Below the pieces are notes generated by a model that was not told the DNA's origin, ran no database searches, and saw nothing but the letters and a program-made list of their open reading frames with translations. This document shows positions 3,518 to 22,722 of a stretch of 32,802 nt of DNA, piece after piece. Position 1 is the first letter of the stretch. Each line of letters starts with the position of its first letter. The translations under genes were made by a program, and so were the position numbers. Source of the stretch: Spirochaetaceae bacterium (GTDB lineage: Bacteria > Spirochaetota > Spirochaetia > B11-G9); the NCBI GenBank assembly GCA_030600745.1, contig JAUVLL010000002.1, forward strand, positions 1 to 32,802, given 5' to 3'.

Positions 3518-3524
3518 GTTTTAT

Positions 3525-4442: not shown

Positions 4443-4540
4443 ATGGATTTATTGTGATAGTATAATTTGACATTGTCAATCTGCTAAATAATTAACGGCG
4501 AGTTTACAAAAGATTTTTCTTAATCCCTGAATACTCAGAT

Positions 4541-4850: not shown

Positions 4851-5014
4851 AATGTTTTAATACCCATTAACTTTTCATAAACGGACAATGCCATAAGTTT
4901 TCCGTCAATGAGATTTATTACATTTTTGAATTTTGAGTGTATCTTGAACTTACCCTGTGCTTGAAAAGCTGAAACACCGATTGAAATATTTTTATAGCTT
5001 GTGAATAATTTCAT
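4799..5014 (-). CDS. Hypothetical 71-aa ORF, probably a gene fragment
   Basis: This is an ORF-track entry only. It has no RBS, its 3' end overlaps the kbl remnant in another frame, and I recognise no family. Confidence 0.15.
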
Positions 5015-5076
5015 TTTCTACAACAATATTTATAACACATCTATTTATTTTTTCAAATTTTTTAAAAGATTTTTTT

Positions 5077-5100
5077 AAAATGGGGACGGTTTCCATCCCC
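5077..5100 (-). terminator. Putative intrinsic terminator downstream of the intact kbl
   Basis: On the minus strand GGGGATGG-aaa-CCGTCCCC forms an 8-bp stem with one G-U pair. It is followed by A-TTTT-AAAAAA, directly after the kbl stop at 5108. Confidence 0.45.
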
Positions 5101-5107
5101 AATATTC

Positions 5108-6331
5108 TTATTTTTTGAATTTTCTTAAAACATCAAGTGCGTAATCAATATCAGATTCAGTATGATCACCGGCGATCTGGAATCTGATTTCTTCCGATCC
5201 CTTGGGAACTACAGGGTAGTTAAGTCCTGTGGCAATAATACCATTCTCTGTCAAAAATGCAACTATATCTGATGTTAATTGTGTATCTCTAACCATTAGA
5301 GGAACTACCGGATGTTCACCATCAAGTGTTTCATAACCTGCATCCTTCAAACCCTGTCTGAATTTTACCGTTAATTTTCTCAAGTGTTCAAGTATTTTTA
5401 ATCCTTCCGGACTTTCAATAATATCAATTGCTTTTGATGCTGCCGCTGCTTCTGAAACCGTTATTGGATTTGAGTAGATATACATTGGAGAAGTTTCTCT
5501 GAAATATTTCAATATTGCATCAGCAGAAACAACATATCCTCCGTTCACGCCGAAAGCTTTTCCAAGAGTTCCAATTAGAATATCTACTTTTGCTTTTGTA
5601 TATTCCTCTGTTCCTCTGCCTGTTTTACCGAATGCACCGACACCATGGGAATCATCTACAACAGAAATTATACCTTCTTCAAATTCCGAATCGTATTTAT
5701 TACAGATCTCAACGATCTCATCAAGTGGTGCATTGTCCCCTCTCATTGAAAAGATCCCGTCCGTTATAACAAGTAAGCGTTTTGCTTTTCCAATACTTTC
5801 CTTGATCTTTGTCTCAAGATCCTGCATATCATTGTGTTTATAAACTGCTTTTCCTGCTGGACGAGTAATTTTCATCCCGTTAATGATACAATTATGATTA
5901 AGTTCATCACTAACGATAATGGTCTCTTTTGTTGTAAGTGGTACTATAACGCTCATACTTGTAACATAAGCAGATGAAAAGATCATTCCGGCTTCTTTAT
6001 TATGAAAGTCGGCAAGCTTTTTTTCCAATATGGAATGTATATTATATGTTCCGCTAATAAATCGGACGGCACCCGGTCCTACACCGAATTTTCTTGATGC
6101 ATCTTCTTCAGCCTTGATCATATCATCTCTCAAGGACAATCCAAGATAGGAGTTTGAATTCATTTTTAAAAATTCTTTTTTTCCATTACCTTCAATAAAA
6201 TACCTTGGACCTTTATTCCCTTTTGCTCTGATAATATCGGTTATGATCATCTCATCGCCTTTGCTGACATTTCGATCCTTTAGATCACTTACATAGGATC
6301 TCAATACTTTACTTAATTTTTCACTTGACAT
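5108..6331 (-). CDS. kbl: 2-amino-3-ketobutyrate CoA ligase / glycine C-acetyltransferase (PLP, alpha-oxoamine synthase family), intact
   Basis: The 407-aa product has NSNSYLGL, VRFISGT, SDELNHNCIING, ITDGIFSMRGD, VDDSHGVGAFGKTGRG, GTLGKAFG (PLP lysine) and YPVVPKGSEEIRFQ. A GGAGGA RBS is present. It lies 8 nt downstream of the SDR-type tdh. Confidence 0.85.
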   Translation of the reverse strand: MSSEKLSKVLRSYVSDLKDRNVSKGDEMIITDIIRAKGNKGPRYFIEGNGKKEFLKMNSNSYLGLSLRDDMIKAEEDASRKFGVGPGAVRFISGTYNIHSILEKKLADFHNKEAGMIFSSAYVTSMSVIVPLTTKETIIVSDELNHNCIINGMKITRPAGKAVYKHNDMQDLETKIKESIGKAKRLLVITDGIFSMRGDNAPLDEIVEICNKYDSEFEEGIISVVDDSHGVGAFGKTGRGTEEYTKAKVDILIGTLGKAFGVNGGYVVSADAILKYFRETSPMYIYSNPITVSEAAAASKAIDIIESPEGLKILEHLRKLTVKFRQGLKDAGYETLDGEHPVVPLMVRDTQLTSDIVAFLTENGIIATGLNYPVVPKGSEEIRFQIAGDHTESDIDYALDVLRKFKK

Positions 6332-6339
6332 ATATCCTC

Positions 6340-7311
6340 CTAATATTTGATATTTAATTTTATTGAAAGGTTCTTCAACATATCTTCTGTCATTTCTTCA
6401 ATACCGAAAGCAGGTTTCCAACCCCATTCTTCTGTAGCAGCAGAATCATCCATAGAATTTGGCCATGAATCCGCAATACCCTGTCTAATTGGGTCAACAT
6501 TATAGGAAAGATCAAATTCCGGAATAAACTTTTTGATCTCTTTTACCAATTCTTCCGGTGTAAAGTTCATAGCAGTAACATTGAAAGCATTCCTGTGTAT
6601 TAATTTACCTGGATCTACTTCCATAATATCTATTGCGGCTTTGATGGCATCCGGCATATACATCATATCAAGGCGAGTTTCTTTACTTAAAAAACATTCA
6701 TATTTTTTATTTTTCAATGCTTCATAGTAAATATCAATTGCATAATCCGTCGTTCCACCACCACCGGGAGTAACATAAGAAATTAAACCCGGATATCTCA
6801 CGCCTCTCGTATCAACTCCGTATTTTGTATGATAATAATCACATAACAGTTCTCCCGAAACTTTGGTAACACCATACATTGAAGTAGGTCTCTGTATCGT
6901 ATCTTGCGGGGTTCTGTCCTTTGGAGTTGAAGGACCAAAAGCACCGATGGAGCTTGGTGTAAATACCGAACAATCATATTTTCTTGCTATTTCCAATATA
7001 ACCGCAATACCTTCAACATTAACCCTCCAGGCGAGTTGCGGATTATTTTCCGCTAATGCAGAGAGAATTGCAGCAAGATGATAGATGGTTCCAATATTAT
7101 ATTTTTTGACAATTTTTTCCAACTCATCATAATTTGTAACTTCAATGAATTCAAAAGGGCCTGAATTTAGAAGTTCATCTGATGGTTTCTTCTTATGCCC
7201 AACAGCAACAACCTGATCATTTCCATATCGCTTTCTGAGAGCAATTGTAAGTTCTGATCCTATCTGACCAACGGCACCAGTAACTAATATCTTTTTTTGT
7301 TCCTTAGACAT
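6340..7311 (-). CDS. tdh: NAD-dependent L-threonine 3-dehydrogenase of the SDR / UDP-glucose-4-epimerase-like fold
   Basis: The 323-aa product has ILVTGAVGQIGSEL (Rossmann), PSSIGAFGP, YGVTKV (YxxxK), GGGTTDYA, MMYMPD and DPIRQGIADSWP. It is collinear with eukaryotic / Flavobacterium-type TDH (from memory) and sits in an operon with kbl. Confidence 0.85.
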   Translation of the reverse strand: MSKEQKKILVTGAVGQIGSELTIALRKRYGNDQVVAVGHKKKPSDELLNSGPFEFIEVTNYDELEKIVKKYNIGTIYHLAAILSALAENNPQLAWRVNVEGIAVILEIARKYDCSVFTPSSIGAFGPSTPKDRTPQDTIQRPTSMYGVTKVSGELLCDYYHTKYGVDTRGVRYPGLISYVTPGGGGTTDYAIDIYYEALKNKKYECFLSKETRLDMMYMPDAIKAAIDIMEVDPGKLIHRNAFNVTAMNFTPEELVKEIKKFIPEFDLSYNVDPIRQGIADSWPNSMDDSAATEEWGWKPAFGIEEMTEDMLKNLSIKLNIKY

Positions 7312-7416
7312 CTTTTGTCCTCCTATAATTTAATGTAAAGGGATAACTCTTCACCAAAATTCACTTTCCTATATCCCATGCAAGAAGAATTTTCATCTCC
7401 CCTCCAAAATAAAAAC

Positions 7417-7542: not shown

Positions 7543-8124
7543 ATGACAGAAAAAAAACTGCTTCCGATCGGGGATACAATAAGGGAAATAAGAAAAAACA
7601 ATCAGATGACGCTGAGAGTACTGGCTGAAAAAAGCGGAGTATCAAAAGCAATGCTTTCCCAGATTGAATCTGACAAGGTAAATCCGACTATTGCTACTGT
7701 ATGGAAGATTTCAACAGGACTTGGAGTTGATATCAATGAACTTACGAGAGTTGTCTCTGTCAAAAAGAGAAGTTTCACTCTTACACAAAAGAATGATAGA
7801 ACAACATTTAACTGTGACGAGGAAGGAGTACATATAAATATCCTTACTCCGATTGATTTGATTGAAGACCTTGAAATGTATCTGATTACATTCCAGAAAG
7901 GAAGTAAACTTAGTTCAAAACCCCATTTCCCGCGGACTGAAGAGTTTCTTACACTCCTTGACGGAGAGATAACAGTTACTGCCGGAAATAATGTTACCGT
8001 AATGCATAAAGATGATTTTCTGACCTATCACAGCGATATAGAGCACTCTATTGAGAATACCGGAGAGAATAATGCTGTAGTACACATGGTTGTCCGGTAC
8101 AAAAAAAAGATGACTAAACATTAA
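7543..8124 (+). CDS. XRE-family HTH + C-terminal cupin transcriptional regulator (PuuR-like architecture)
   Basis: The N-terminal HTH reads IREIRKNNQMTLRVLAEKSGVSKAMLSQIESDKVNPTIATVWKISTGLGV. The C-terminal cupin reads EEFLTLLDGEITV...HSIENTG. An AAGGAA RBS is present. Confidence 0.8.
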   Translation: MTEKKLLPIGDTIREIRKNNQMTLRVLAEKSGVSKAMLSQIESDKVNPTIATVWKISTGLGVDINELTRVVSVKKRSFTLTQKNDRTTFNCDEEGVHINILTPIDLIEDLEMYLITFQKGSKLSSKPHFPRTEEFLTLLDGEITVTAGNNVTVMHKDDFLTYHSDIEHSIENTGENNAVVHMVVRYKKKMTKH

Positions 8125-8243: not shown

Positions 8244-9689
8244 CTATTCAACATCAGGCTGATGACCAGCAACTACCCTGTCAATATCCTTTATTATATT
8301 TTCCGGTAAGACCGCCGGATGGTGGTTTTTAAAGATCTCTTTTGCCTCTTCATTCAGTTTCACGGCAAGATCCTTCTTTCCCTCATCTTCCCATGCCTGA
8401 TAACGGTCTCTGTTCAGGAAACGTGGAAACCATAAGGTTTTTCTGAAATGTTCCACTGTATGCTCTTCCATGAGAAAGTTGCTTCCATCCAAAACCCTCT
8501 CCACCACATCAAGAGCAACTGTATTTTCATTGAAATCCAAAGGACGAAGCAAATACTTGACAGAATTGATAATTTCATCTGCAAAAAGCAGTGATTCAAA
8601 AGATGATGTAAGACCTGACTCGAGATAGCCGCAGTCATGAATAATATTGCAACCGTTCAATGTTGCCATGTAAATGGACATTGCGGATTCAAATCCAGCC
8701 TGGGCATCAAGTACTTTTGAATCGGTTGCTCCGGCAATACAGAAAAACGGAAGCTTATAATAATGAGCCATATCTGCCAACCCATGATTAATAACATTCA
8801 ATTCAGGAGCTCCGTACCTGAAAATATTGGTTTTCATATCCATGGCAGTTGCATCACCGCCAAAAATAAATTTTGCACCCTCTTTCTTTTTCTGAAAAAC
8901 AACAAGACCGGCCAGAGACTCGGCTACAGTCTGTACAAGAATTCCCTCAATAGTAACGGGGGCCGATGCCCCCAGCATGGGACTGCCGATATAGACAAAG
9001 GGGACCTCATAATCACAGCAGACCAGCCCCTTGTCCATCCCCATTTCTGTATGAAGGAGGGGTGACACAGGTTCTGTATACAAAATAAGGGAAGGCTTGC
9101 TTTTCAGCTCATTTATCCCTCCCACAGATGCTGCAGCCATCCGGATCATCGTATTCATATCATTTCTTCCATGACCGGTGACAATTATTGGTTTTTCAGT
9201 ATTTTTCAGCATTGCATCGTATTGATGCACAAAATTGCTCCCCTTTGGACTATCATAGGCAATACCAAAGGACATAACAAAATCAATATTCGGAAGTGCA
9301 TCACTGAATACGGCAAGTCTGGCAACATCATCTTTCAAAGAGGCTCGTCTCTCTCCTGTATCAAGATCAATGGTAGTAGGACAGTCAGAACCTGTTCCAT
9401 AATTACAGGATCCCTCCTTAAGTTCCATGGCCAGTTCACCATTCCTGTTAAATACCTCTATTTTTTCGGGAGCTACTTCCAAAGCCTCCCGGACCATTTT
9501 CCGGGGTATCCTTATTCTATCAGGGTTTGAGACATCACACCCGGCATGACCTAATATATCCAGGGCCTCTGCGCTTTGTACTCTGCACCCGATCTCCTCC
9601 ATCATTCTGAGAGCATAGTCATTGACCTGTTGTATCTGTTCATTTGACAGAATCTGGTTACTAATTGGTTTTCCCAGTGATACTGACAT
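8244..9689 (-). CDS. MttB-superfamily (trimethylamine methyltransferase-like) protein, non-pyrrolysine type; probable quaternary-amine:corrinoid methyltransferase
   Basis: An uninterrupted 481-aa ORF with no in-frame TAG, of typical MttB-family length and composition (..NYGTGSDC.., ..YTEPVSPL.., ..GGDATAMDMKT.., ..IHDCGYLESGL..). An AGGAGGG RBS is present. Confidence 0.8.
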   Translation of the reverse strand: MSVSLGKPISNQILSNEQIQQVNDYALRMMEEIGCRVQSAEALDILGHAGCDVSNPDRIRIPRKMVREALEVAPEKIEVFNRNGELAMELKEGSCNYGTGSDCPTTIDLDTGERRASLKDDVARLAVFSDALPNIDFVMSFGIAYDSPKGSNFVHQYDAMLKNTEKPIIVTGHGRNDMNTMIRMAAASVGGINELKSKPSLILYTEPVSPLLHTEMGMDKGLVCCDYEVPFVYIGSPMLGASAPVTIEGILVQTVAESLAGLVVFQKKKEGAKFIFGGDATAMDMKTNIFRYGAPELNVINHGLADMAHYYKLPFFCIAGATDSKVLDAQAGFESAMSIYMATLNGCNIIHDCGYLESGLTSSFESLLFADEIINSVKYLLRPLDFNENTVALDVVERVLDGSNFLMEEHTVEHFRKTLWFPRFLNRDRYQAWEDEGKKDLAVKLNEEAKEIFKNHHPAVLPENIIKDIDRVVAGHQPDVE

Positions 9690-9767: not shown

Positions 9768-9864
9768 TATATTTCTTTTTTTATTTTTTAGATAGATTAT
9801 TTTAAGTTTTTTATACATTTAGTCCATTTTCTATTTGATTTTTGCTCCATAATAAATGACTGCA

Positions 9865-9893
9865 TTGACAGACAGGAGGTGTAATTGTATAAA
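9865..9893 (+). promoter_or_regulatory. Sigma70-like promoter for the Lrp/AsnC regulator
   Basis: TTGACA (9865-9870), 17-nt spacer, TATAAA (9888-9893). The inferred TSS lies only a few nt before ATG 9919, implying a very short leader. Confidence 0.45.
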
Positions 9894-9918
9894 TACATTA
9901 TTGGAGCTTAGAAACCGG

Positions 9919-10386
9919 ATGGTCGATGAAAAATATGAAATAGACAATCTTGACAGAGAAATAATATTTGAACTGCAGGAAGATGCCAGAAGACAATTCA
10001 AAATTATTGCCGGGAAACTAAAGGTCTCTGAAGGCACTATTAAAAACAGGGTGGAACGACTTATTAAGCAGGACATCTTAAAGCTGGAAGCCAGAGTTAA
10101 TCCCTTTGCCCTGCCAAGAAGAATCTCAGCAATTGTGGGTGTAAATTTAAAAGAACGGAATCATGAAGAAATTATGAAGAAAATTGAGAAAATCCCATGG
10201 GTAACCAGTGTCTGGAATGCCAGCGGCCGTTTTGATCTTTTCTTTGAATTAATGGTCGATTCACTGGAATCACTGAATGGTGCTCTTTTTAAGAATGATT
10301 TAGAAAAAATCGGCGGTATATCTTATACTGAAACATTTATCATTCTGTCTTCAAATACCAAGTATTTTAAGATATACAGACCTTAA
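9919..10386 (+). CDS. Lrp/AsnC-family transcriptional regulator
   Basis: MVDEKYEIDNLDREIIFELQEDARRQFKIIAGKLKVSEGTIKNRVERLIKQDIL is the canonical AsnC HTH, followed by a RAM-like domain. The track start at 9856 lies upstream of the predicted promoter, so ATG 9919 is preferred. Confidence 0.75.
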   Translation: MVDEKYEIDNLDREIIFELQEDARRQFKIIAGKLKVSEGTIKNRVERLIKQDILKLEARVNPFALPRRISAIVGVNLKERNHEEIMKKIEKIPWVTSVWNASGRFDLFFELMVDSLESLNGALFKNDLEKIGGISYTETFIILSSNTKYFKIYRP

Positions 10387-10388: not shown

Positions 10389-10425
10389 ACTGAGGAGTTC
10401 CTTACACTTCCTGACGGAAAAATAA
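10389..10425 (+). repeat. 37-nt relic of a cupin-regulator coding sequence, paralogous to 7936-7972
   Basis: 31 of 37 nt are identical to 7936-7972. It reads TEEFLTLPDGKIIDN* against TEEFLTLLDGEITV inside the XRE-cupin gene, and it lies in the 53-nt gap between lrp and ggt. Confidence 0.6.
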
Positions 10426-10439
10426 TAGATAATTAATTT

Positions 10440-12041
10440 CTATATTCCTCCAGCCGATCCGTCTCTCCTGACATCAGCAATTCCCTGAAACCCGCCACCC
10501 CCTGATTGCTCTTTAAGAACAGTCTGTATCCCACCAAAATAGAAACTGAATGGTTCCCGTCTATCGATCTCATACCCGTCCTCTTCTAAACGGGACAGAA
10601 CAGATGGATGGAAACGGTCAGCTTCAATACTTATAAGGTTGTTTATAGAGTAATGCATCCTGGGCTCTTTCATTGCTTCATATATGGTCATATTACGATC
10701 AACTACATTTATAATAAACTGACTCAGTGCAGTAAAAATTCGCTGACTTCCGGGAGTGCCAAGCACCATCCATGGAGAATCTTTATGAAAGATAATTGAA
10801 GGAGCAACTGAAGAAAAGGAGAGACCATTAGACCTGAAGTAGTGAGGATGCTCCGGAGAGTCCAGATTCATATCGGAAAGATAAGTATTATAAAGGAATC
10901 CGAGGCCTTCAGCAGCTGCTTTGCTTCCAAAAAGATGATTTATTGACTGAGTAATACCAACAGAATTACCTTGAGAATCCATTACTGACAGATGCGTGGT
11001 TTCTCCACTGGCATCAGGAAAATATTTTTCCATCATGCTTTTGATATTTATACCTGCGGATTCTCCGGTCAGCATAAAATCATTTTCCGGAGAATAAGAA
11101 TCTGGAGAGGGAATATTCTCTTCGTTTAAATGTAATGCCGATTTGAATATTCCTGCCAGTAATGAATATGATTCAGGAATCTGTGCAGCAATAACGGATG
11201 ACGGACAACGATCAAGGGCTCCAAGTGTATAGAGCAGCATTCTTCCACCGGAAGAGGGAGGCAGAGTTGCAATTTTCAATCCTCTGTACATTGTTGTAAT
11301 GGGTTTTCTCTCAATAGGCCAGGGTATTCTCCCCAGATCATCGGATCGCAGGAATCCGCCATTTGCACGCATATCTTCATCAATAATACTGGCAGGTTTT
11401 CCTGTGTAGAAATACTCCGGACCAAAGTCCGCAATGTCCTGAAGAATTAATACAAGATCAGGTTGAGTAAACAGATCCCCTTTTTCAAAAGGTTTCAAAC
11501 CATCTTTAAGATAGTAACGAGCACCTGATAAAGAGGGGACTTCCCTGAACAGGGACAATTCCTTCACCTGAAGATCATGCTGAAATTGAGTAATTTTATA
11601 TCCCTCTTTGGCAATATTAATCGCCGGTTCCAGTATTTCATTCCATTTCAACCGGCCGAAACGCCTATGGAGGTGTCCCAAAACAGCCACAGTACTGGGA
11701 ACTGTAGTCCCTGTGTAACCAACACTCAGAGATTCATCGTCTACAGAGTCAATATCAACAAGCCCCGGAGCTCGGCTAGACCCATCGAGAGCCATGGTAA
11801 TACCGTCTATATGAAGGATAACATTGGATTCTCCCCCTATACCGCTTGCCTGGGGTTCACAAACACCAATGGCAAATGCCGAAGCACAGGCTGCATCAAC
11901 AGCATTTCCACCCCTTCGCAGTATTTCGACTCCTGCCCTGGTTGCATCAGGAAATGCTGTCGCAACCATGCCCTCCCCTGCAGACGAACTCTTCATGTCC
12001 GATGTAGAGCAGAATTTGCTTTCAATAGCTGCAATATCCAT
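10440..12041 (-). CDS. ggt: Gamma-glutamyltranspeptidase-family Ntn hydrolase, no signal peptide (cytoplasmic)
   Basis: The 533-aa product has the autoprocessing/catalytic motif GETTHLSVMD, plus GIGG and TPGSQRI motifs. An AGGAGAG RBS is present. The N-terminus is hydrophilic. Confidence 0.8.
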   Translation of the reverse strand: MDIAAIESKFCSTSDMKSSSAGEGMVATAFPDATRAGVEILRRGGNAVDAACASAFAIGVCEPQASGIGGESNVILHIDGITMALDGSSRAPGLVDIDSVDDESLSVGYTGTTVPSTVAVLGHLHRRFGRLKWNEILEPAINIAKEGYKITQFQHDLQVKELSLFREVPSLSGARYYLKDGLKPFEKGDLFTQPDLVLILQDIADFGPEYFYTGKPASIIDEDMRANGGFLRSDDLGRIPWPIERKPITTMYRGLKIATLPPSSGGRMLLYTLGALDRCPSSVIAAQIPESYSLLAGIFKSALHLNEENIPSPDSYSPENDFMLTGESAGINIKSMMEKYFPDASGETTHLSVMDSQGNSVGITQSINHLFGSKAAAEGLGFLYNTYLSDMNLDSPEHPHYFRSNGLSFSSVAPSIIFHKDSPWMVLGTPGSQRIFTALSQFIINVVDRNMTIYEAMKEPRMHYSINNLISIEADRFHPSVLSRLEEDGYEIDRREPFSFYFGGIQTVLKEQSGGGGFQGIADVRRDGSAGGI

Positions 12042-12073
12042 GAAAATCTCTCCTGATTTTTTATTTAAACAGA

Positions 12074-13246
12074 TTACTGAAAAAGTCTTCCAGACACCAG
12101 ACGCTGATGACTTAGTTCTATTATTGAAACAAGAAGTTTTGTCCGGTTAAGGAGGCTGTTCTTAATCATATATTCCCTGTCACTATGATCGTACATACCT
12201 ATAGGGCCCAGGCCATCAATTACCGGAGTGCCCGCTGCAGATATAATATTTGCATCGGAACCGCCCGATCGAAATTCTTCAAGTACAGAAATATTAAGAC
12301 TTTTCCCCGCTTCGGCTGCAATATTAAACAGTTCTCTGTTTTGTTCTGTTGTAACCATTGCAGGGCGATCGGCTATCTTAACCAGTCGGCTGGTTGTACC
12401 TGTTACATCTATACGATCATTGATCTCTTCAAGTCTGATCATAAAGGCACTAAAAGTCTCTTCAGTACTATAACGAATGTCTATTGCAGCCATAGCAGTT
12501 TCAGCTATGCTGTTCGGACCCGTACCACCTTCTATTTTACCAACATTTACAGTCAGTTCCGGGAAGGTATTGTTTAAAGATTCTATCTCTATAATTTTAT
12601 GAGCAAGATCCAATACAGCGCTGGATTTTGCTTCTGTTAAGTTAGCTGCATGTCCTGCCTTCCCTTTCACATGGATCTCCAGACCCAGACGACCCTTTCG
12701 ACCTGTAACCACTTCCCCGTTCATACCACCGCATTCAGTAACCAGGGCCATAGCACTTTTTTTTGCCTGTAAGGCAATAATCGCCCTGGATACAGGAGAA
12801 CCGATCTCCTCATCTGTATTAAAAATTACTCTTATTGGTATTTTGGAAAGCATATTACAGGAATTAAGGGCTTTCAGGGCATAAATGATTGAAACAATAC
12901 CACCCTTCATATCAATGACACCCGGTCCATAGACATTTTTTTCATCTTCACGAAAGAACTTGAAATCAGTATCCTCCGGGAATACCGTATCCAGATGACC
13001 TACCAGTAAAATATTGCCTGAATCCCCTGCCGAATGACTGGAAAAGATCAGGGTGTCTCCATAGTTCTCATTTTCAAAGCGTGTTAACCTGAAGGGAAGA
13101 TCCTCAACTGCTTTTACTACAGCATCACAGACCCGGTTTACACCGGGTTTATTGTGAGTACTGCTCTGAATCAGAACAAGATCCTTCAGGAGTTCAAGGA
13201 TCCCATCACTCTGCCCCTCCAGATAATCTACAGATAAAGATCCCAT
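12074..13246 (-). CDS. M20-family metallopeptidase (carboxypeptidase G2 / amidohydrolase / deacylase-like)
   Basis: GHLDTV, DMKGG, NTDEEIGS, a GKAGHA dimerisation-domain segment and GGSDAN. It starts 2 nt after the kamA-like stop. Confidence 0.8.
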   Translation of the reverse strand: MGSLSVDYLEGQSDGILELLKDLVLIQSSTHNKPGVNRVCDAVVKAVEDLPFRLTRFENENYGDTLIFSSHSAGDSGNILLVGHLDTVFPEDTDFKFFREDEKNVYGPGVIDMKGGIVSIIYALKALNSCNMLSKIPIRVIFNTDEEIGSPVSRAIIALQAKKSAMALVTECGGMNGEVVTGRKGRLGLEIHVKGKAGHAANLTEAKSSAVLDLAHKIIEIESLNNTFPELTVNVGKIEGGTGPNSIAETAMAAIDIRYSTEETFSAFMIRLEEINDRIDVTGTTSRLVKIADRPAMVTTEQNRELFNIAAEAGKSLNISVLEEFRSGGSDANIISAAGTPVIDGLGPIGMYDHSDREYMIKNSLLNRTKLLVSIIELSHQRLVSGRLFQ

Positions 13247-13248
13247 AT

Positions 13249-14829
13249 CTAATCCTTGTAACCGGCAAAAGCAAAATCTGTTTTCCTATATATTTCAGGA
13301 TCTGCATCCGGATAATCAACCTCCTCCCCGGACCATGGTTTCCTCAAAACCACTGCACTATCTTTTTGACCGATAACATTGTCACGGTGCATAGGAACCT
13401 TTCCCCCCGCTGTACAGATATAGCGCGGTATGGCATCACCGGATATGTTCCCGTACATGCTCTCTATAATATCTCTCCCAATCTCAACAGGAACGCGCAG
13501 ATGTGCAAATTGAGCATTTCTATAGGAGCAGTTAAAAACATAATAGGGGCGGACATAAGCCTCATGAATGGTCTCGCATAGCTTCCACATCTTTACACGG
13601 GTATCATTGATCCCTTTCAGGAGTACAGCCTGATTCATGACTGTCATTGATACTGATGAAAGTTTCCTAAAAGCCTCTCTACTAACAGGAGTAATTTCCT
13701 GGGCTGTATTTATCTGTGTGACTACACGAATTGGTTTTTTGTCATTGCTCTTACCAAGAATATCAAGAAGTTCATCGTCTATCCTCATTGGTGCTGTAAC
13801 AGGAATACGAGTACCAAGGCGTTTTACAGTAATATGGTCTATTGAGTCGAGCTCATCAAGAAGAAATTTGATCATATCGTTGGGCAGAACAAATGCATCT
13901 CCCCCGGTTACCAGAACATCCCGAATAAAGGTATTATTCCTTATATAGTCAAGAGCTTCCCTATACGCCTCTTTACGGTAGATATTGTCTTTTTTCCCAA
14001 TATGGGCAATTCTGAGGCAATGGGTGCAATACATGGCACACATGTTTGTCGATTTAACAGATACAACCCTGGGATAGAATTGATCAATCAATCGTGCCGG
14101 TGAGTGATCTGCAGCTACGGGTGGAATTTCTTCACCTACATTGTCAACCATTTCTCCTGTAGGCACACTTTGTATTAAAACAGGGTCATTTATTTTTCCA
14201 GGCTGGATAAGGCTTGCATAATAGGGAGTTAAGCGCATACGGTAGGATTTGGTAACCCTCAGAACATCCTTGATTGCAGAAGAAGGAAGATCCAGAACTC
14301 TGGAAAGAGTGTCAACAGAATTGATGGCGTATTTAAGCTGACCATTATACGAATTCCAGTCTTCTTCACTCATATTGAGCTCTTTCATAATCCTCTTCTT
14401 ATTATCCAGGATACTGTCCCAGAGCTCAATACCGCTTGGTGCTTCGGTATCCTTCTGCTGCAGATAATCTTTCACACGTTCGTTGGCCGCCTCAACAATT
14501 GGAAGGGCACGGTTTATTCGACCGCCTACAGTAACTCCATGTTCGTCGATCTCCTCATGACGCTTAGCAATAGTAACGAGATCATCATAGCTCAATCCCA
14601 GGTCAGACAGAAGAATACCCTGCTTCCGGCGCAACTCAAGAAGCTGTAAAAAGAAATCAATAATAGACTGGGTAAGCTCGGTTTGCTTCAATATGTCGAG
14701 CTTATTAGTCATTTCATCAATTATCTCCTGTGAAACTCCGGAACCCGCTGTACCTGATGCAAACAGCTCATCAAAAAGCTCCCCGGTAAAAGAATCAAGC
14801 GACCCATGTTCGATTTTATTATCACTCAT
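13249..14829 (-). CDS. KamA-family radical SAM / PLP amino-acid 2,3-aminomutase-like protein with an N-terminal extension of about 150 aa
   Basis: CAMYCTHCLR (CX3CX2C), TPYYASLI, DPVLIQSVP, VLVTGGDAF, RPYYVFNC and TAGGKVP (PLP lysine). ATG 14829 (MSDNKIEHG) follows a GGGGAGA RBS; the track start at 14844 is TTG. Confidence 0.8.
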   Translation of the reverse strand: MSDNKIEHGSLDSFTGELFDELFASGTAGSGVSQEIIDEMTNKLDILKQTELTQSIIDFFLQLLELRRKQGILLSDLGLSYDDLVTIAKRHEEIDEHGVTVGGRINRALPIVEAANERVKDYLQQKDTEAPSGIELWDSILDNKKRIMKELNMSEEDWNSYNGQLKYAINSVDTLSRVLDLPSSAIKDVLRVTKSYRMRLTPYYASLIQPGKINDPVLIQSVPTGEMVDNVGEEIPPVAADHSPARLIDQFYPRVVSVKSTNMCAMYCTHCLRIAHIGKKDNIYRKEAYREALDYIRNNTFIRDVLVTGGDAFVLPNDMIKFLLDELDSIDHITVKRLGTRIPVTAPMRIDDELLDILGKSNDKKPIRVVTQINTAQEITPVSREAFRKLSSVSMTVMNQAVLLKGINDTRVKMWKLCETIHEAYVRPYYVFNCSYRNAQFAHLRVPVEIGRDIIESMYGNISGDAIPRYICTAGGKVPMHRDNVIGQKDSAVVLRKPWSGEEVDYPDADPEIYRKTDFAFAGYKD

Positions 14830-14994
14830 TATCATTCTCCCCAATAGAAATAATTTCTTTCATAATTCAGACTTCTGCCTGTTATCAGACCATTTAAGTC
14901 TATGTCTATTCATCTATAGCAAATATTCATTGCAAGTTCAATATACTAAATAAAGTTTATTATGTTATTCACTATTAATTCTTAGGTTTTTGTC

Positions 14995-15023
14995 TTGACA
15001 GAGGGACCCGGCATACATATTAT
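14995..15023 (+). promoter_or_regulatory. Sigma70-like promoter for the aminotransferase / TIM-barrel pair
   Basis: TTGACA (14995-15000), 17-nt spacer, TATTAT (15018-15023). Confidence 0.5.
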
Positions 15024-15079
15024 TGGTAAATAATATCGATTAACTGTACTTATTTTGGACAGCTTATGGAGGATAATGT

Positions 15080-16339
15080 ATGTTTAATATTCAAGATTCC
15101 GGCTTATCAAAGGTTCTGACCCACGCTACCGATATGGTAGCTGATCATGCAAAGGGTGTGTATATTTATGATTCAAAGGATACAGAATATCTGGATTTTA
15201 CTTCCGGAATAGGTGTAACCAGTACCGGGCATTGTCATCCAAAAGTTGTTTCTGCAATTAAAAAACAGGCTGAATCACTTATATTCGGGCAACTGAATAT
15301 AGTAGTTCATAAACCTGTACTGGAACTGATTGATAGACTTAAGAATATTGTCCCTTCCGGTCTTGACAGATTTTTCTTTTCAAACAGTGGAGCTGAGGCA
15401 GTAGAAGCTTCTGTAAAACTGGCAAAACGAGCAACAGGACGATCCAATATCATAGTTTTTCAGGGAAGCTTCCATGGCAGAACACATCTGACCATGTCTA
15501 TGACAACCAGTAAAACAATTTACAGGGCACAGTATCAGCCTTTGGTTCCTGGTATCTTTGTAACACCATATCCATACTCATATTATTACGGATGGAATGA
15601 TGATGAAACATCCAGCTTTGCAATAAAGGAATTGGAACGTCTTTTTAAATCTCAGACTACTCCGGAAGAGACTGCAGCTATTATAATTGAACCTGTACTT
15701 GGAGAAGGCGGATATGTAGTTCCACCCAGAGGATTTATCAAAACCTTAAGAGAAATCTGTGATAAGTACGGCATCCTTCTTATTGCCGATGAAATACAGT
15801 CCGGATTTGGAAGAACCGGAAAATATTTTGCAGTAGATCATGAAGATGTTGCTCCAGATATAATGGTTATGGCAAAAGGTCTTGCCTCAGGTATGCCTCT
15901 TTCATGTATCGCCTACAAACATGACCTGGAGAAGAATTGGCTTCCGGGAAGTCATGGCGGCACTTATGGGGGAAACCCGGTATCCTGTGCGGCGGCTGTT
16001 GCAACGATTGATGTAATTTCCAATGAAAATCTGGTTACCAATGCTGCTATAAGAGGAAAGCAATTACTGGAAGGACTGAAAACTCTAAAAAAGAAGAATA
16101 AGCGTATCGGGGATGTAAGAGGATTGGGACTTATGGCGGCTGTAGAGTTTGTCAGGGACAATAAGCCCGATCCTGAGACTACGAAAGCTGTCATTGCAGA
16201 GGCTGCCGACAGAAACCTTCTCCTTTTAAGTTGCGGTACTTTTGGGAATGTTGTCAGATTAATTCCGCCTCTTATTGTTAACGAAGCTCAGATAGAAAAA
16301 GCACTGACCATATTTGAAGATGCCCTGGACAATCTTTAG
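15080..16339 (+). CDS. Class-III (omega) aminotransferase, GabT/PuuE-like (4-aminobutyrate aminotransferase family)
   Basis: Collinear with E. coli GabT (from memory): TGHCHPKVV, SNSGAEAVE, GSFHGRT, IIEPVLGEGG, ADEIQSGFGRTGK, MAKGLASGMPL (PLP lysine), GGTYGGNP, DVRGLGLM and LLLSCG. A GGAGGA RBS is present. Confidence 0.85.
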   Translation: MFNIQDSGLSKVLTHATDMVADHAKGVYIYDSKDTEYLDFTSGIGVTSTGHCHPKVVSAIKKQAESLIFGQLNIVVHKPVLELIDRLKNIVPSGLDRFFFSNSGAEAVEASVKLAKRATGRSNIIVFQGSFHGRTHLTMSMTTSKTIYRAQYQPLVPGIFVTPYPYSYYYGWNDDETSSFAIKELERLFKSQTTPEETAAIIIEPVLGEGGYVVPPRGFIKTLREICDKYGILLIADEIQSGFGRTGKYFAVDHEDVAPDIMVMAKGLASGMPLSCIAYKHDLEKNWLPGSHGGTYGGNPVSCAAAVATIDVISNENLVTNAAIRGKQLLEGLKTLKKKNKRIGDVRGLGLMAAVEFVRDNKPDPETTKAVIAEAADRNLLLLSCGTFGNVVRLIPPLIVNEAQIEKALTIFEDALDNL

Positions 16340-16344
16340 TCATT

Positions 16345-17187
16345 ATGTGTTTAAGTATAAATACAGATATATTTTCCAGCCGGGGCAATCCATTTCCTAT
16401 ACTGAAGCAAATTGCAGAAAAAGGGTTCAAATATATTCAATGGTCCCACCACTATGGTACTGATTTTTATTATAATAAATCTGAAATTAAGGAAATTAAA
16501 AACAGATTAGATGAATACGGTCTGATCCTTAATGATCTTCATGCAACAATCGGAGTTGAAAAAAGGTGGTTTTCGGAAACTGAATATCAAAGGAAGGCCG
16601 GAGTCGAACTTGTAAAGAACAGAATTGAGATGACAGCAGAGCTTGGAGGAGATGTTATTGTACTTCATCCCTTTAATACTCCTGATCCGGACTTATATGA
16701 TATACATTATAAACAGGGAAAAAAATCATTAAATGAACTTAAAGAGGTTTGCCTGAATACAGGAGTTAAAATTGCTCTTGAAAACCTCACATCCATGCAG
16801 ACTTTAACAACAATAGAGAAATATTTTGATAATTTTAAGGATAATTTTCTTGGATTTTGCTGGGACACCGGACATACAAATAATCTGGAACCTGAAGCAA
16901 TTGATTATGCTGATAAATTTACCAGTGAAAGATTGATTGCACTTCATATTAACGACAATATGGGGGATGGAAGGGACCTTCACGGTATTCCTTTTTCAGG
17001 AACTGCTGATTGGAAAAAAATTACAAAAATTATCTCAAAATCATCTTATTCCGTAAAAAAACCTTTAACTCTGGAAGTAGAACATGGAGAAGAAAAAACA
17101 CTTGATGAATTTATAAAAATTGCAATGGAAAAAGGATTAATAATTAATAAAATGGTAAAAAACCACAGAAAACAGCATAGTCTGTAA
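16345..17187 (+). CDS. Xylose-isomerase-like TIM-barrel protein (sugar phosphate isomerase/epimerase family)
   Basis: The 280-aa product has the typical pattern ..VLHP.. / ..ALEN.. / ..DTGH.. / ..HINDN.. of metal-binding strands. It starts 5 nt after the aminotransferase stop. Confidence 0.7.
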   Translation: MCLSINTDIFSSRGNPFPILKQIAEKGFKYIQWSHHYGTDFYYNKSEIKEIKNRLDEYGLILNDLHATIGVEKRWFSETEYQRKAGVELVKNRIEMTAELGGDVIVLHPFNTPDPDLYDIHYKQGKKSLNELKEVCLNTGVKIALENLTSMQTLTTIEKYFDNFKDNFLGFCWDTGHTNNLEPEAIDYADKFTSERLIALHINDNMGDGRDLHGIPFSGTADWKKITKIISKSSYSVKKPLTLEVEHGEEKTLDEFIKIAMEKGLIINKMVKNHRKQHSL

Positions 17188-17206: not shown

Positions 17207-17914
17207 TCAAAAATTCTTTACGGTAGCATCTGCCTGAGCTTTTTCAATATGCTCCATCATAAGTTTTAGGGACAATTTCGAATTCCCTTTTTTTACAGCA
17301 TTGAATATCTTAATATGATCCTCCAAACCTTTTTCCGGTCGGCCTTTAAGTTTTAAAGTTGTCTGCCTGGTTTTGACAAGAAGACCTTTAGCCATTAAAA
17401 GCATCTTCTCAAACACACTATTTTTGCATGCTGCTGCAAGGGCATCATGAAAAGCAGTATCACCTTCAATCCCGATACCCCCATTTTCAATATCTTCTCT
17501 CATTAAATCAATACTTCTTTCCATCCTTGCTATATCTTCTTCTGTTCTGCGTAAAGCCGCAAGTCTGGCTATTTCAGTCTCAAGAATTCTACGGAATTCA
17601 AGCATTTCAATAATAAGCTCTTTTTCATTTCCCAGAATTTCAGAAAAAGGATTGATAAGGGCATCAATTGAAATCTTTTTTACAAAGGTCCCTCCGCCAA
17701 CTCCAACCCTGGAATCAAGAAAGCCCAAAGTTCCCAGAACACGAAGAGCTTCCCTGATTGAAGCCCGGCTGACCTGAAATAATTCTGACAACTCTCTTTC
17801 ACTTGGAAGCTGATCACCGGTTTTATAAGTGCCGTCAATAATCATGGATTGAAGCTTCTTAAGCACCTCTTCTGATAATCGACGTTTTTTTATCGGCTTA
17901 ATTTTATTATCCAT
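17207..17914 (-). CDS. GntR-family regulator, FadR subfamily (FCD domain)
   Basis: The winged HTH reads LPSERELSELFQVSRASIREALRVLGTLGFL. An all-helical FCD-type C-terminal domain follows. It is the last gene of the minus-strand operon. Confidence 0.85.
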   Translation of the reverse strand: MDNKIKPIKKRRLSEEVLKKLQSMIIDGTYKTGDQLPSERELSELFQVSRASIREALRVLGTLGFLDSRVGVGGGTFVKKISIDALINPFSEILGNEKELIIEMLEFRRILETEIARLAALRRTEEDIARMERSIDLMREDIENGGIGIEGDTAFHDALAAACKNSVFEKMLLMAKGLLVKTRQTTLKLKGRPEKGLEDHIKIFNAVKKGNSKLSLKLMMEHIEKAQADATVKNF

Positions 17915-17931
17915 ATTTCGGGTAATCCTAT

Positions 17932-19380
17932 TTATATTGATTGGATTGCTTCTTCAAAAGCAGTATTAATCATTTCGATGGGTACTTTTTTAATATACCC
18001 CCCCTTCTCCATTGATTCTATAAGGTTTCTGGAATAACTTATCTCTTCCTCTGCCTTTTTAAAAACCTCATCTCTTGTCATTATTACCCTTGCAAGTCCC
18101 TCTTCGATAGCCTGCATGGCTACATCCGCGGCCTCACAGGGAAAAACTCCCGGTTCTTCCATTGTCGCAATTATATTATCCGGTGTTATTCCCCTTTCCT
18201 CCGCATATTTAGCAAGCGATTTTGCTGCCGCTATTGTCATTCCATCAGAAATCTTTTTTGCCCTGACAAGCAAAGCACCCTTCAAAATACCAGGAAAACC
18301 AACAGAATTATTAACCTGATTAGGAAAGTCTCCTCTGCCTGTTGCAACAATAAATGCCCCGGCAGCTTTAGCAGCATAGGGATAGATCTCCGGGACCGGA
18401 TTTGCACATGCAAAAACAATAGATTTTGAAGCCATTTTTTTTATATCGACCGGAGAAACCGTATCCGGGCCTTGTTTGGAAAGTGCAATGAGAACATCCG
18501 CCCCGGTCATAGCTTCACTAAATGTTTCAATTTTACCTGGATTCGTTTTCTGACAGAGTTCCCACTTTCGGTAAAAGCGTTTGTCTTCTTCAATATCTTT
18601 ACGGTCTCTATTAAGAGGACCCTTTGAATCGAAAACTACAATATTTGCAGGATTAGCTCCAGCCTGTATTACAATTCTGGCAATAGTTGAATTTGATGCT
18701 CCTGCACCCAAAAATACAATTTTTACTTCTTCAAGTTTTTTATCAGCCAGTTTAACTGCATTTATCAGACCGGCAAGGGTCACACAGGCTGTTCCCTGTG
18801 CATCATCATGCCATACAGGAATATCACATTCTTCCCGCAGTGTATCAAGCACTTTATAGCAGTTCGGTTGTGATATATCTTCAAGATTAATTGCTCCAAA
18901 ACCAGGCTGGACCATCTTTACAAATTCTATTATTTTATCAGGATCATGCTCACCCTTACTGTTTCTACTGTCAATGCAAAGGGCTGTAGCATCAACTCCC
19001 CCAAGGTACTTCATTAAAAAAGCCTTTCCTTCCATAACCCCAAGACCTCCCGGAGGGGTACAGTCCCCATCACCCAGGACCCTGGTTGAATCGCTTACAA
19101 CAGCAACATAGTTACCTTTATTGGATAAATCATACGCTGCATCATTATCATCTCTTATTATTGTTGATACTTTTGAAACTCCGGGAGTATACCATACATT
19201 AAACCAGTTGAAACCGAAGACACCCGCCTTAGGTACTGTCTGCATCTTACCGCCATAAAATTTATGGGCCTTTTCGGAAAGATTTTTCATGAAATCTGTT
19301 TTAACCCTTGCTTTCTGGCTTTCATTTAGTCCACGTTTTTCTATCTCTTCCTCTATATTTGCTAAATCAAGATTTATCAT
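17932..19380 (-). CDS. NAD(P)-dependent malic enzyme (oxaloacetate-decarboxylating malate dehydrogenase), short prokaryotic type
   Basis: YTPGV, VVSDSTRVLGDGD, MEGKA, INLEDI, HDDAQGTA, FLGAGASN, FACANPVPEI and NNSVGFPG. ATG 19380 follows an AAGGAG RBS; the track start at 19389 is GTG. Confidence 0.85.
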   Translation of the reverse strand: MINLDLANIEEEIEKRGLNESQKARVKTDFMKNLSEKAHKFYGGKMQTVPKAGVFGFNWFNVWYTPGVSKVSTIIRDDNDAAYDLSNKGNYVAVVSDSTRVLGDGDCTPPGGLGVMEGKAFLMKYLGGVDATALCIDSRNSKGEHDPDKIIEFVKMVQPGFGAINLEDISQPNCYKVLDTLREECDIPVWHDDAQGTACVTLAGLINAVKLADKKLEEVKIVFLGAGASNSTIARIVIQAGANPANIVVFDSKGPLNRDRKDIEEDKRFYRKWELCQKTNPGKIETFSEAMTGADVLIALSKQGPDTVSPVDIKKMASKSIVFACANPVPEIYPYAAKAAGAFIVATGRGDFPNQVNNSVGFPGILKGALLVRAKKISDGMTIAAAKSLAKYAEERGITPDNIIATMEEPGVFPCEAADVAMQAIEEGLARVIMTRDEVFKKAEEEISYSRNLIESMEKGGYIKKVPIEMINTAFEEAIQSI

Positions 19381-19403
19381 TAAAAACACTCCTTATTATT
19401 TTT

Positions 19404-20687
19404 TTAGCTGTTTGCTGTATAGTTGGGTAGTATTGAACCGCCAAAAGGGATGATATGAACAAGAGCATCCTTGCCTTTTCTCCCAAGAGCTTCATCCAAA
19501 GCCTGCTGAGGTTCTTTAAAAGGTTTCATAAATATATTTCCGACAAGGGATGGATCCATATCCGATACAAGATATATCTCTGCATTCTTCAGTATCAAAG
19601 CAATTGCAGCTGCTTTATGTCCTCCAAGAATAAAGTTCTTTCGAATTTCCTCTATCATGAGTTCAGGTTTTTCAAATTCTATCATCCACTTTTCGAATTG
19701 TCCCCCACCCAGACCTTCTGTGCATGCTGCAACAAGAATTATAATCCCACCCTCTTTAACCGCATGTTTGGCATTTTCAAGGGCTTTATGGGCCTGATAA
19801 AGATTAATATCTTTAGGATAACCTCCGGGGGAAACAACCACTATATCTGCTTTAGTATCTATCGGACAGCTGTAAAGCCTGTCTATTAATCTACACCCCT
19901 CTCTATGGGCAGCTACAGGATCGCCGGCAAAAGCTCCTATAATTTTTTTATGCTCATCAAGCACAACATTAAAAAGAAAATCAATTTTAATAAAATCAGC
20001 AACCTCTTCGATATCATCTCTAACCGGATTATTAATTAAATTTCCTCCACAGGCTTTGTCCTTCACCATATGACTGTGGTTCTTCTGTATAGCAGAAAAG
20101 GTTGAAACCCCCGGCATAACAGCCTTGTATCCGCCGCTGTAACCGGCAAAATAATGATATTCAATATTTCCAAGACAGATTATTTTATCTGCATGGACAA
20201 CCGGTCTAAAAATATCAACAGGAGTCCCCCTTGATGTCACCCCTAATGATACTACATCATCAGGATCACTATCTATACAGCTTATTCTTATAAAAATGTC
20301 ATCACCAACTAATTTTCTTTTTTCTTCATCTGTCTGCTTCCGATGGCTTCCAAGTCCAAAAACTATTGTTATATCATTGTCCTCTATTCCAGCTCTGTTT
20401 AATTCCATGATCAGTGCCGGCAAAATCTTATAGCCCGGCAACGGTCTTGTAATGTCACTCGTTATAATAACTACCTTTTCACCTTCTTCAAAAATATCAT
20501 AAACAGGCAAACTCTTTATTGGATTTCTTAAAGCCTGTTCAACCACCTCGGCTTCCGAAAGCTGTAGATCAATCTTTTCCACATACATTACTTTCCCAAT
20601 ATTTTTTGCAGGTATTAATAGTGATTTATTCTGCTTTCCAAAGCCCAATTCTACCTTAGTAAAACCTTCTTTCATCTTCTGTATCAT
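19404..20687 (-). CDS. larA: LarA-family nickel-pincer-nucleotide-dependent 2-hydroxyacid racemase/epimerase
   Basis: The 427-aa product has GLGSHR, EYHYFAGYSGGYKAVMPG, NHSH and NLYQAHKALENA. These match the catalytic His/His, the NPN-tethering Lys, the Ni-binding His and the Y-Q-x-x-K substrate motif of L. plantarum LarA (from memory). A GGAGGG RBS is present. Confidence 0.8.
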   Translation of the reverse strand: MIQKMKEGFTKVELGFGKQNKSLLIPAKNIGKVMYVEKIDLQLSEAEVVEQALRNPIKSLPVYDIFEEGEKVVIITSDITRPLPGYKILPALIMELNRAGIEDNDITIVFGLGSHRKQTDEEKRKLVGDDIFIRISCIDSDPDDVVSLGVTSRGTPVDIFRPVVHADKIICLGNIEYHYFAGYSGGYKAVMPGVSTFSAIQKNHSHMVKDKACGGNLINNPVRDDIEEVADFIKIDFLFNVVLDEHKKIIGAFAGDPVAAHREGCRLIDRLYSCPIDTKADIVVVSPGGYPKDINLYQAHKALENAKHAVKEGGIIILVAACTEGLGGGQFEKWMIEFEKPELMIEEIRKNFILGGHKAAAIALILKNAEIYLVSDMDPSLVGNIFMKPFKEPQQALDEALGRKGKDALVHIIPFGGSILPNYTANS

Positions 20688-20708
20688 CTATACCCTCCAT
20701 AATCGCCC

Positions 20709-21578
20709 CTACAGGAGATCTGCCAGAATCTCTACAAGATCTTCGGTCCCTTCCGCTATATGGACCCCGGAATTCCTTAATTCCGCCTCTTTCTTTTCTG
20801 CGGAACCTTCACCATCCGGCGAAACAATTGCTCCCGCATGTCCCATACTGGTATCATTAGGCACATTCTTTCCTGCAATGAGTGCAACAACAGGTTTCGT
20901 AATATGCTCTTTAATATAAGCAGCTGCCAACTCTTCTTCACTGCCACCTATTTCGCCTATCAATACAATTATTTTTGTATCAGGATCATTCTCAAAAAAT
21001 GGAAGAATATCAGCAAACGTTGAGCCGGGGACCATATCACCTCCAACTCCCACTACTGTGGATTGACCTATCCCTTTCTGCTTTAATAAAAATACTGTCT
21101 CATAGCAGTTAGTAGCACTTCGGGACATTATCCCTACATTCCCGGGCATAAAAATCCTGTGTGCCATAAAACCGGCTTTTGCCTTTCCGGGAGAAATTAC
21201 TCCGAAGGAGTTAGGTCCTATAAGCCTGCATCCTTTTTCTTTTGCAAGATGATGAAGTTTCAGCATTTCATGAACAGGGACCCCCTCTGCAATAGTAATT
21301 ACCAATGGAATTCCAGAAATAATAGCCTCATATGCGGCCTTATACATAAATTTCGGCGGCACAAATAATAGAGTAGCATTTGCATCTGTTTCCTCCATCG
21401 CCTCCATTACAGTATTAAATACCGGCACGCCCAGTACTTCCCCGCCGCCTTTCCCCGGAGTAACCCCGGCAACGACCTTTGTTCCATACTCAAGCATCTG
21501 TTCAGTGTGAAATGTTCCTTCTCTTCCGGTAATTCCCTGAACAATAAGTTTTGTATTCTCATCTATAAAGAAACTCAT
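20709..21578 (-). CDS. sucD: Succinyl-CoA synthetase alpha-subunit-like (ADP-forming acid-CoA ligase, CoA-binding / phosphohistidine subunit)
   Basis: [24 protein letters not shown] and SMGHAGAIV (phosphohistidine loop). There is a 4-nt ATGA overlap with the beta subunit. Acid specificity (succinate versus malate or another acid) cannot be read from the sequence. Confidence 0.8.
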
Positions 21579-22717: not shown

Positions 22718-22722
22718 ATACT

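Follow-up and report, generated by a model that had tools for sequence, protein, structure and literature searches.

The 32,802-nt stretch of DNA analyzed here (the window; contig JAUVLL010000002.1 of a Spirochaetaceae bacterium) carries at positions 10440-17187, numbered throughout on the whole stretch, three minus-strand genes for a γ-glutamyltransferase (GGT)-family hydrolase, an M20 hydrolase and a KamA-type aminomutase, here called KamA-L, which face a plus-strand aminotransferase/TIM-barrel gene pair. Comparison with related loci indicated that KamA-L, M20 and GGT form what appears to be a self-contained, conserved and horizontally mobile operon. It is highly probable that the module is genuine and has no relation to the aminotransferase and the TIM barrel. 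KamA-L itself falls in a tight clade that looks like a new aminomutase subfamily, sister to glutamate 2,3-aminomutase (Eam). Pfam and NCBIfam profile searches found the five open reading frames (ORFs) and their domains as an earlier reading made without database searches (the sequence-only reading) had placed them:

10440-12041, minus strand: GGT-family N-terminal nucleophile (Ntn) hydrolase, cytoplasmic (PF01019, 330 bits)
12074-13246, minus strand: M20 metallohydrolase, carboxypeptidase-G2 (CPG2)-like (PF01546 and M20_dimer PF07687)
13249-14829, minus strand: KamA-L, radical S-adenosylmethionine (SAM)/pyridoxal phosphate (PLP) 2,3-aminomutase of the KamA family, 526 residues (Radical_SAM, LAM_C, TIGR00238 246 bits)
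14830-14977, no strand: native upstream (promoter) region of the KamA-L operon, alignable with loci L001 and L002
15080-16339, plus strand: class-III aminotransferase (PF00202, 441 bits)
16345-17187, plus strand: xylose-isomerase-like TIM barrel (PF01261, 113 bits)

Conservation of the KamA-L operon and the inserted block

To follow KamA-L across genomes, peptide patterns specific to it were used, and these revealed 280 relatives among 185,579 species genomes. Most of the relatives are in Desulfobacterota, the others including Deferribacter, Aquificota, SAR324 and Spirochaetales, and they are concentrated in marine, saline and thermophilic anaerobes. Identity across phyla is 63-70%, and the nearest relatives of the window protein are from Spirochaetales metagenome-assembled genomes (84-88%). 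The public runs containing the window sequence are cold-seep metagenomes, and an exact-match look-up of the window KamA-L returned a 2-kb Logan contig as its sole match.

Gene neighbourhoods were analyzed in 80 of the 280 genome matches, with up to 10 kb of flank each, and in four further GGT-type loci (L169-L172) recovered through the protein database. In 54 of the 69 loci with enough flank, KamA-L is followed immediately by the M20 gene on the same strand, and in 63 of 74 it is immediately preceded by a gene for an ATP-grasp ligase of about 470 residues. GGT was found in only six surveyed loci, which are six of the seven that have no ATP-grasp gene; L050, the seventh, is without either. In no surveyed locus do ATP-grasp and GGT occur together, and L169-L172 show the same pattern. 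KamA-L is nearly always paired with an amide-bond enzyme across these anaerobes. The window carries this module (KamA-L followed by the orthologous M20, plus either an upstream ATP-grasp or a cytoplasmic GGT) in its GGT form, and the same gene order is found in L001-L004, L169, L170 and L172. The tight minus-strand operon described in the sequence-only reading was confirmed and is conserved outside the window genome: 2 nt separate the TAG stop of KamA-L from the ATG of M20, and 32 nt lie between the end of M20 and the start of GGT, which AGGAGA precedes by 7 nt.

We refer to the two versions of the module as A-type (ATP-grasp partner; most Desulfobacterota, Deferribacter and Aquificota), which looks biosynthetic, and G-type (cytoplasmic GGT partner; a minority including the window), which looks like a salvage version and often has a co-operonic importer. 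The best matches of the family ATP-grasp are weak and to BesA (generic, 25 bits). TAXI-TRAP transporter genes, Usp and a GntR/FCD regulator are further frequent neighbours of KamA-L, the TAXI-TRAP transporters adjoining many A-type operons. Five GGT-type loci (L003, L082, L036, L169 and L172) have in or beside the operon an orthologous SBP5-OppBCDF transporter whose solute-binding proteins (SBPs) share 44-55% identity and best match GsiB in NCBIfam, at 115 bits against a cutoff of 594. A 470-residue amidohydrolase recurs in two GGT-type loci. The alternation of ATP-grasp with GGT and the GsiB-like Opp transporter, present only in related loci, had escaped the sequence-only reading.

In a neighbor-joining tree the window falls in a group with the majority of the GGT-type sequences, those of Spirochaetales as well as of Desulfobacterota, indicating horizontal transfer of the operon. 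Two other GGT-type loci nest among the ATP-grasp types, indicating that the swap between GGT and ATP-grasp happened more than once and that the G-type arose at least twice. A gene for a ligase like glutamine synthetase (GS) and one for a short, 357-residue KamA paralogue were also seen in or beside five ATP-grasp-KamA-L-M20 operons (L028, L041, L042, L051 and L062; e.g. L062 11730-14131). The GS-like gene scored 361 against the GlnA cutoff of 429 and the short paralogue fits no equivalog; the two are a second ligase/aminomutase pair.

The same survey, which the sequence-only reading had proposed, bore out the conservation of KamA-L, M20 and GGT and not the association with the facing genes: none of the 80 genome loci, and none of 5 additional ones, has the aminotransferase/TIM-barrel pair beside KamA-L. 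DNA identity across the operon is 85-86% for L001 and L002, the closest relatives, which align with the window up to about 14977 and again from about 24312-24324. The segment 14978-~24311 (no strand; eight genes, outside the module), absent from both, is therefore a 9.3-kb indel, and in L001 and L002 the KamA operon directly faces an SBP5-Opp-sulfatase operon. The same eight-gene block is intact in L087, at 65-94% amino acid identity, in another context without KamA. A strong promoter-like site for the aminotransferase (TTGACA-17-TATTAT) lies inside the inserted block.

These data also bear on the 235-bp control region that the two gene sets had been said to share. A divergent intergenic region does exist. 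If an alternative TTG start at 14844 were used, the KamA-L ORF would be 13249-14844 (minus strand); the ATG at 14829 is probably the likelier start, since the homologues have 526 residues, and the region is then 250 bp instead of 235. Positions 14845-14977 are conserved with the relatives and from 14978 on the sequence is that of the block, so the region is composite, native to the operon only as far as 14977. An octamer, CTTGACAG, is found at both block junctions (14995-15002 and 24324-24331), and each copy includes a TTGACA resembling a -35 element. Microhomology that served the insertion or deletion could explain the repeat, as could chance.

The sequence-only reading had joined all five genes in one pathway, in which a β- or γ-amino acid released by M20 and GGT, the product of the aminomutase, would be deaminated by the facing aminotransferase and processed by the TIM barrel. 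The genes are adjacent and divergently oriented in the window genome, class-III aminotransferases accept ω- and β-amino acids, and the best NCBIfam matches of this one are γ-aminobutyrate (GABA)- and acetylornithine-type transaminases. Against this stand the lack of co-occurrence, the absence of the segment from the closest relatives, its integrity elsewhere without KamA and the promoter-like site of its own. In addition, genes for proteins homologous to the TIM barrel (78% and 51% identity) lie directly after a different, long-SBP Opp operon (L086 3503-10843) or near one (L088 1-6012), whose SBP5 of about 680 residues is related to the SBP5 of the window. This suggests that the TIM enzyme works with the long-SBP Opp transporter and not with KamA, and perhaps also with the PehA-like sulfatase at 31004-32533. 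The integrated pathway is thus largely refuted by the conservation test, and we consider it very unlikely.

KamA-L and its partner hydrolases

KamA-L matched the generic KamA family model TIGR00238 (246 bits, cutoff 199.2) and fell below the cutoffs of the NCBIfam equivalog models for lysine, glutamate and arginine aminomutases and EpmB. The lysine 2,3-aminomutase (LAM) model AblA, TIGR03820, gave 295 bits (cutoff 525) and the Eam model TIGR04368 (Clostridioides difficile type) 350 bits (cutoff 650). The latter was still the best NCBIfam match, and Eam, which is also the next clade in a global search, is the closest characterized relative. In that exhaustive search of 1.8 billion representative proteins the edge of the KamA-L clade was sharp, with scores of 663, 502 and 399 bits followed by 256 bits for true Eam.

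The protein aligned with LAM (PDB 2A5H) over residues 157-502 (E = 3e-65) and has the same fold and cofactor motifs. The CxxxCxxC motif (C269-x3-C273-x2-C276) and the PLP lysine K482 are invariant in the clade alignment, and Arg278, equivalent to the α-carboxylate Arg134 of LAM, is kept. Eam and KamA-L have these three features in common, together with part of an N-terminal extension relative to LAM. On the other hand, the positions of LAM Asp293 and Asp330, the lysine-binding pair, are occupied by Ser440 and Thr478, which are invariant across the clade. These two specificity positions are Asp/Asp in the bona fide AblA proteins P0245 and P0250 and Lys/Asn in an Eam-type sequence (P0238, 693 bits against the Eam cutoff of 650); Ruzicka and Frey reportedly described in 2007 a functional role of this Lys/Asn pair of Eam. 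By residues as well as by scores, KamA-L is neither a lysine nor a glutamate 2,3-aminomutase. It further differs from Eam in a 3-residue deletion before the PLP lysine and in about 110 additional N-terminal residues, to which nothing in Eam or LAM corresponds and for which an AlphaFold model confidently predicts helices. This model, built on a 13-sequence alignment, had a mean predicted local distance difference test (pLDDT) score of 54.5 and was confident only for the helical N-domain.

Literature searches combining aminomutase with ATP-grasp, M20, GGT, Desulfo* and compatible solutes found no publication on the KamA-L family. One representative protein of 512 residues, P0235, is a full-length relative with 40% identity that has lost CxxxCxxC and has KMPVAARSRPVYC there instead; it may be a paralogue without catalytic activity.

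The best NCBIfam matches of the M20 protein were PRK07338 (244 bits, cutoff 357) and glutamate carboxypeptidase, both below cutoff, and PRK06133 gave 212 bits (cutoff 349). Its nearest PDB structure is CPG2 (1cg2/6xj5, E about 1e-34).

The GGT has the properties of a T03 Ntn hydrolase: the PF01019 match, the nucleophile Thr348, which is kept and starts the small-subunit alignment, and the γ-glutamyl-binding residues. In our own reading of the alignment with E. coli GGT (2e0w) the γ-glutamyl-binding Arg, Asn, Asp and Ser-Ser are kept, whereas Gln430 is replaced by Tyr and Gly484 by Ser. The scores for the canonical periplasmic models were below cutoff (TIGR00066, 302 against 358; PRK09615, 200 against 990). 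As the sequence-only reading had noted, the protein has no hydrophobic N-terminus and no signal peptide; the same holds for its orthologues. A metagenome scan made from the GGT alignment used generic GGT motifs, useful only as a negative control, and yielded only GGTs of 29-41% identity, none adjoining KamA-L.

Proposed role of the module and alternatives

Gene content, conservation, mutual exclusion of ATP-grasp and GGT, the indel and the active-site residues are observations; the substrate and the direction of flux are inferred. The best explanation, to which we give an even chance, is that the window holds a hydrolytic, salvage version of the module acting on a peptide-like compound with a γ- or β-glutamyl group. 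After uptake of such a compound, its γ-glutamyl amide would be hydrolysed by GGT and the remaining amide, at a C-terminal glutamate or in a dipeptide, would be cut by the CPG2-like M20. The aminomutase, acting reversibly, would interconvert glutamyl moieties carrying an α- or a β-amino group and thereby give a β-glutamyl compound access to central metabolism. The substrate of the GGT version may be a product of the ATP-grasp version. The glutamyl theme as such we put forward tentatively, at somewhat less than even; it is suggested by the Eam sister clade, the CPG2-like M20, the γ-glutamyl site of GGT, the GS-like ligases, the GsiB-like SBP and the TAXI-TRAP transporters. The view of the sequence-only reading that this is an uncharacterized system, plausibly for γ-glutamylated or β-amino compounds, is supported by these data.

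KamA-L may act on free β-glutamate/glutamate or instead on a γ-amide-linked form. A γ-amide-linked side chain would agree better than a free γ-carboxylate with a neutral Ser/Thr pocket, the deletion in the loop and the additional domain. A bolder proposal, which we regard as doubtful, is that KamA-L is the first radical-SAM 2,3-aminomutase for an amide-linked (γ-glutamyl) substrate, interconverting γ-glutamyl-X and β-glutamyl-X pseudo-peptides. Two other activities considered for KamA-L, an isoaspartyl-peptide-to-aspartyl-peptide 'repair' aminomutase and a cysteine/serine 2,3-aminomutase, were not adopted, as no specific neighbourhood pointer was seen for either.

Several points weigh against a glutamyl salvage role. 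No tested activity was found for any member of the KamA-L clade, for its M20 or for this GGT clade, and the AlphaFold model of KamA-L, at the mean pLDDT of 54.5, is too poor for pocket inspection. Ser/Thr at the specificity positions would also be compatible with a neutral substrate that is not glutamyl. The window has no GsiB-like SBP and its neighbouring Opp belongs to a different subfamily. A cytoplasmic GGT clade with about 50% identity is widespread without KamA-L, for example in Nitrosomonas and Nitrosopumilus, and KamA was present in 0 of 80 generic GGT loci, which makes the GGT a recruited generalist. M20 is also found in the ligase-containing A-type operons, and a simple split into synthesis and salvage leaves it unexplained.

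Known systems offer partial parallels. As in E. coli Puu and BesA-type pathways, where an ATP-dependent glutamyl-amide ligase and a glutamyl-amide hydrolase bracket a transformation, the KamA-L family has both kinds of enzyme, and as in Puu a PuuR-like regulator, plus a PuuR-like relic, is near the operon. Unlike those pathways, there is no PuuA/B/C/D set, and the ligase of some genomes takes the place of the GGT of others instead of the two acting in succession. The PuuR equivalog model gave 54 bits against a cutoff of 211 and the window has no GS-like gene, and thus it does not encode a Puu system. The related loci resemble E. coli GsiABCD plus GGT in having an SBP5/Opp importer best matching GsiB and a GGT-family hydrolase. 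The differences are the cytoplasmic location of GGT, an SBP score well under the cutoff, the lack of that SBP in the window and the radical-SAM aminomutase, which is without parallel there.

The GsiB match could nevertheless be taken to mean use of glutathione or γ-Glu-Cys, with import of glutathione by the GsiB-like Opp, its cleavage by GGT to Glu and Cys-Gly, M20 as a Cys-Gly dipeptidase and KamA-L converting Glu or Cys for fermentation. The canonical γ-glutamyl-binding residues of GGT agree with this, and M20 enzymes include the Cys-Gly dipeptidases Dug1 and CNDP2. The M20 of the module is nearer to CPG2 than to the dipeptidases, however, the GsiB score is far under cutoff and the window has no such SBP. 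Since most KamA-L operons are A-type, with ATP-grasp and without GGT or Opp, glutathione breakdown cannot be the core role of the family, and we judge this explanation decidedly unlikely. Another reading is biosynthesis of a β-amino-acid compatible solute such as β-glutamate, β-glutamine, N-ε-acetyl-β-lysine or a new β-glutamyl dipeptide. β-Glutamate and β-glutamine are known solutes of methanogens, and in Methanohalophilus GS converts β-glutamate to β-glutamine (PMC1224877). The marine, saline and thermophilic distribution of the family, the cold-seep origin of the window and the ATP-dependent ligases of A-type operons (ATP-grasp, sometimes a GS-like enzyme) are in agreement with such a role. 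The window version, on the other hand, has two hydrolases and neither ligase nor acetyltransferase, orthologous operons include importers and KamA-L lacks the lysine-binding residues. Solute biosynthesis therefore plausibly fits the A-type genomes and not the window locus, and in the window organism it is unlikely.

The sequence-only reading had also compared the locus with the B. subtilis yodT-yodS-yodR-yodQ-yodP-kamA operon, which also contains an M20 and a class-III aminotransferase. This family overlap with a β-lysine pathway proved superficial. In KamA-L the two Asp residues of LAM are replaced by Ser/Thr and the AblA score is 295 against 525; the M20 is nearest to CPG2. The operon partners are GGT or ATP-grasp and not the acetyltransferase and CoA transferase of B. 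subtilis, domains found in none of the window ORFs, and the aminotransferase is outside the conserved unit. An equivalent β-lysine pathway is scarcely credible here.

Flanking genes and significance

The KamA-L module is flanked in the window by the following genes, of which those from 17207 to 24129 belong to the inserted block:

9856-10386, plus strand: Lrp/AsnC regulator, convergent with GGT (PF13404 and PF01037)
10389-10431, plus strand: relic of a PuuR-like (helix-turn-helix-cupin) regulator gene (blastn and translation match to 7543-8124 and L002)
17207-17914, minus strand: GntR/FCD regulator
17932-19389, minus strand: malic enzyme
19404-20687, minus strand: malate racemase, LarAH6 family (548 bits, cutoff 500)
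20709-22717, minus strand: SucD/SucC
22723-24129, minus strand: CoA-acylating aldehyde dehydrogenase
24424-30795, plus strand: Opp/Dpp-type ABC transporter with a long SBP5 of 673 residues (Pfam and synteny)

The Lrp/AsnC gene and the PuuR-like relic named in the sequence-only reading were both confirmed. Lrp/AsnC is at the same position in L002 (91% amino acid identity), and the 43-bp relic encodes TEEFLTLPDGKI; the corresponding stretch of the intact, full-length PuuR-like gene (7543-8124), in its cupin part, reads RTEEFLTLLDGEI. A PuuR-like remnant was seen right after the GGT stop in both the window and L002 (14401-14524), with an intact copy beyond an Lrp-MttB pair in both, which suggests that insertion of this pair separated an ancestral PuuR-like regulator from GGT. 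Inside the MttB-family ORF (8244-9689), which has no in-frame stop, Rfam PYLIS_3 matched 8629-8729 (minus strand) with 39.3 bits against a gathering score of 38; this is probably coding homology in a non-Pyl MttB of the quaternary-amine methyltransferase type and not a functional PYLIS. The Rfam scan of the window revealed no riboswitch, and a lead to a Na+ riboswitch (PMC9337991) was dropped for this reason.

In L001 and L002 the Opp/Dpp operon directly adjoins the KamA operon, in divergent orientation. Its SBP5 is not orthologous to the GsiB-like SBP co-operonic with KamA-L elsewhere, and a functional link to the KamA-L operon is uncertain. Near the start of the window, a class-I/II aminotransferase ORF (1069-1710) spans only the C-terminal two-thirds of its domain; the blastn match to L002 runs on to about 2112 in a second piece, a 155-bp fragment recurs at 4678-4832 and L002 lacks most of window positions 2113-7407, suggesting that this gene was disrupted or rearranged and that the region was locally rearranged relative to L002.

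The inserted block reads as a separate catabolic unit, unrelated to the KamA-L module. Its LarA has the score of a nickel-dependent malate racemase and an adjacent malic enzyme gene, in line with the gene-context rule for LarAH6 (PMC7583248). Most simply, the block would encode conversion of an ω-amine through a semialdehyde and an acyl-CoA to an acid with formation of ATP, plus D-malate to L-malate to pyruvate. Speculatively, (R)-4-amino-3-hydroxybutyrate (GABOB) might be converted via malate semialdehyde and malyl-CoA to D-malate (with ATP), then L-malate and pyruvate, or, more simply and also speculatively, GABA to succinate with separate use of D-malate. For a carnitine- or GABOB-derived route to D-malate our confidence is low.

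Among KamA-type aminomutases the established substrate specificities are few, namely lysine, glutamate, arginine and the elongation factor P (EF-P) lysine route. The KamA-L clade has unique specificity residues, an extra domain and a repeatable operon across several anaerobic phyla, which makes the module a target for enzymology and metabolite discovery, of which the window holds one ordinary copy. The locus is also a warning that genes may seem to share a pathway merely because they stand side by side, in divergent orientation, in one genome; here a 9.3-kb insertion brought them together. If KamA-L does act on amide-linked substrates, sulfate reducers, Deferribacter and Aquificota would make undescribed β-glutamyl compounds (solutes or storage), resistant to proteases and GGT, by the ATP-grasp version, and sediment fermenters such as the cold-seep spirochaete would unlock and eat them by the GGT/Opp version. 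The alternation of an ATP-dependent ligase with GGT provides a testable handle on a glutamyl or β-amino metabolite that may pass between sulfate reducers and fermenters in marine sediments.

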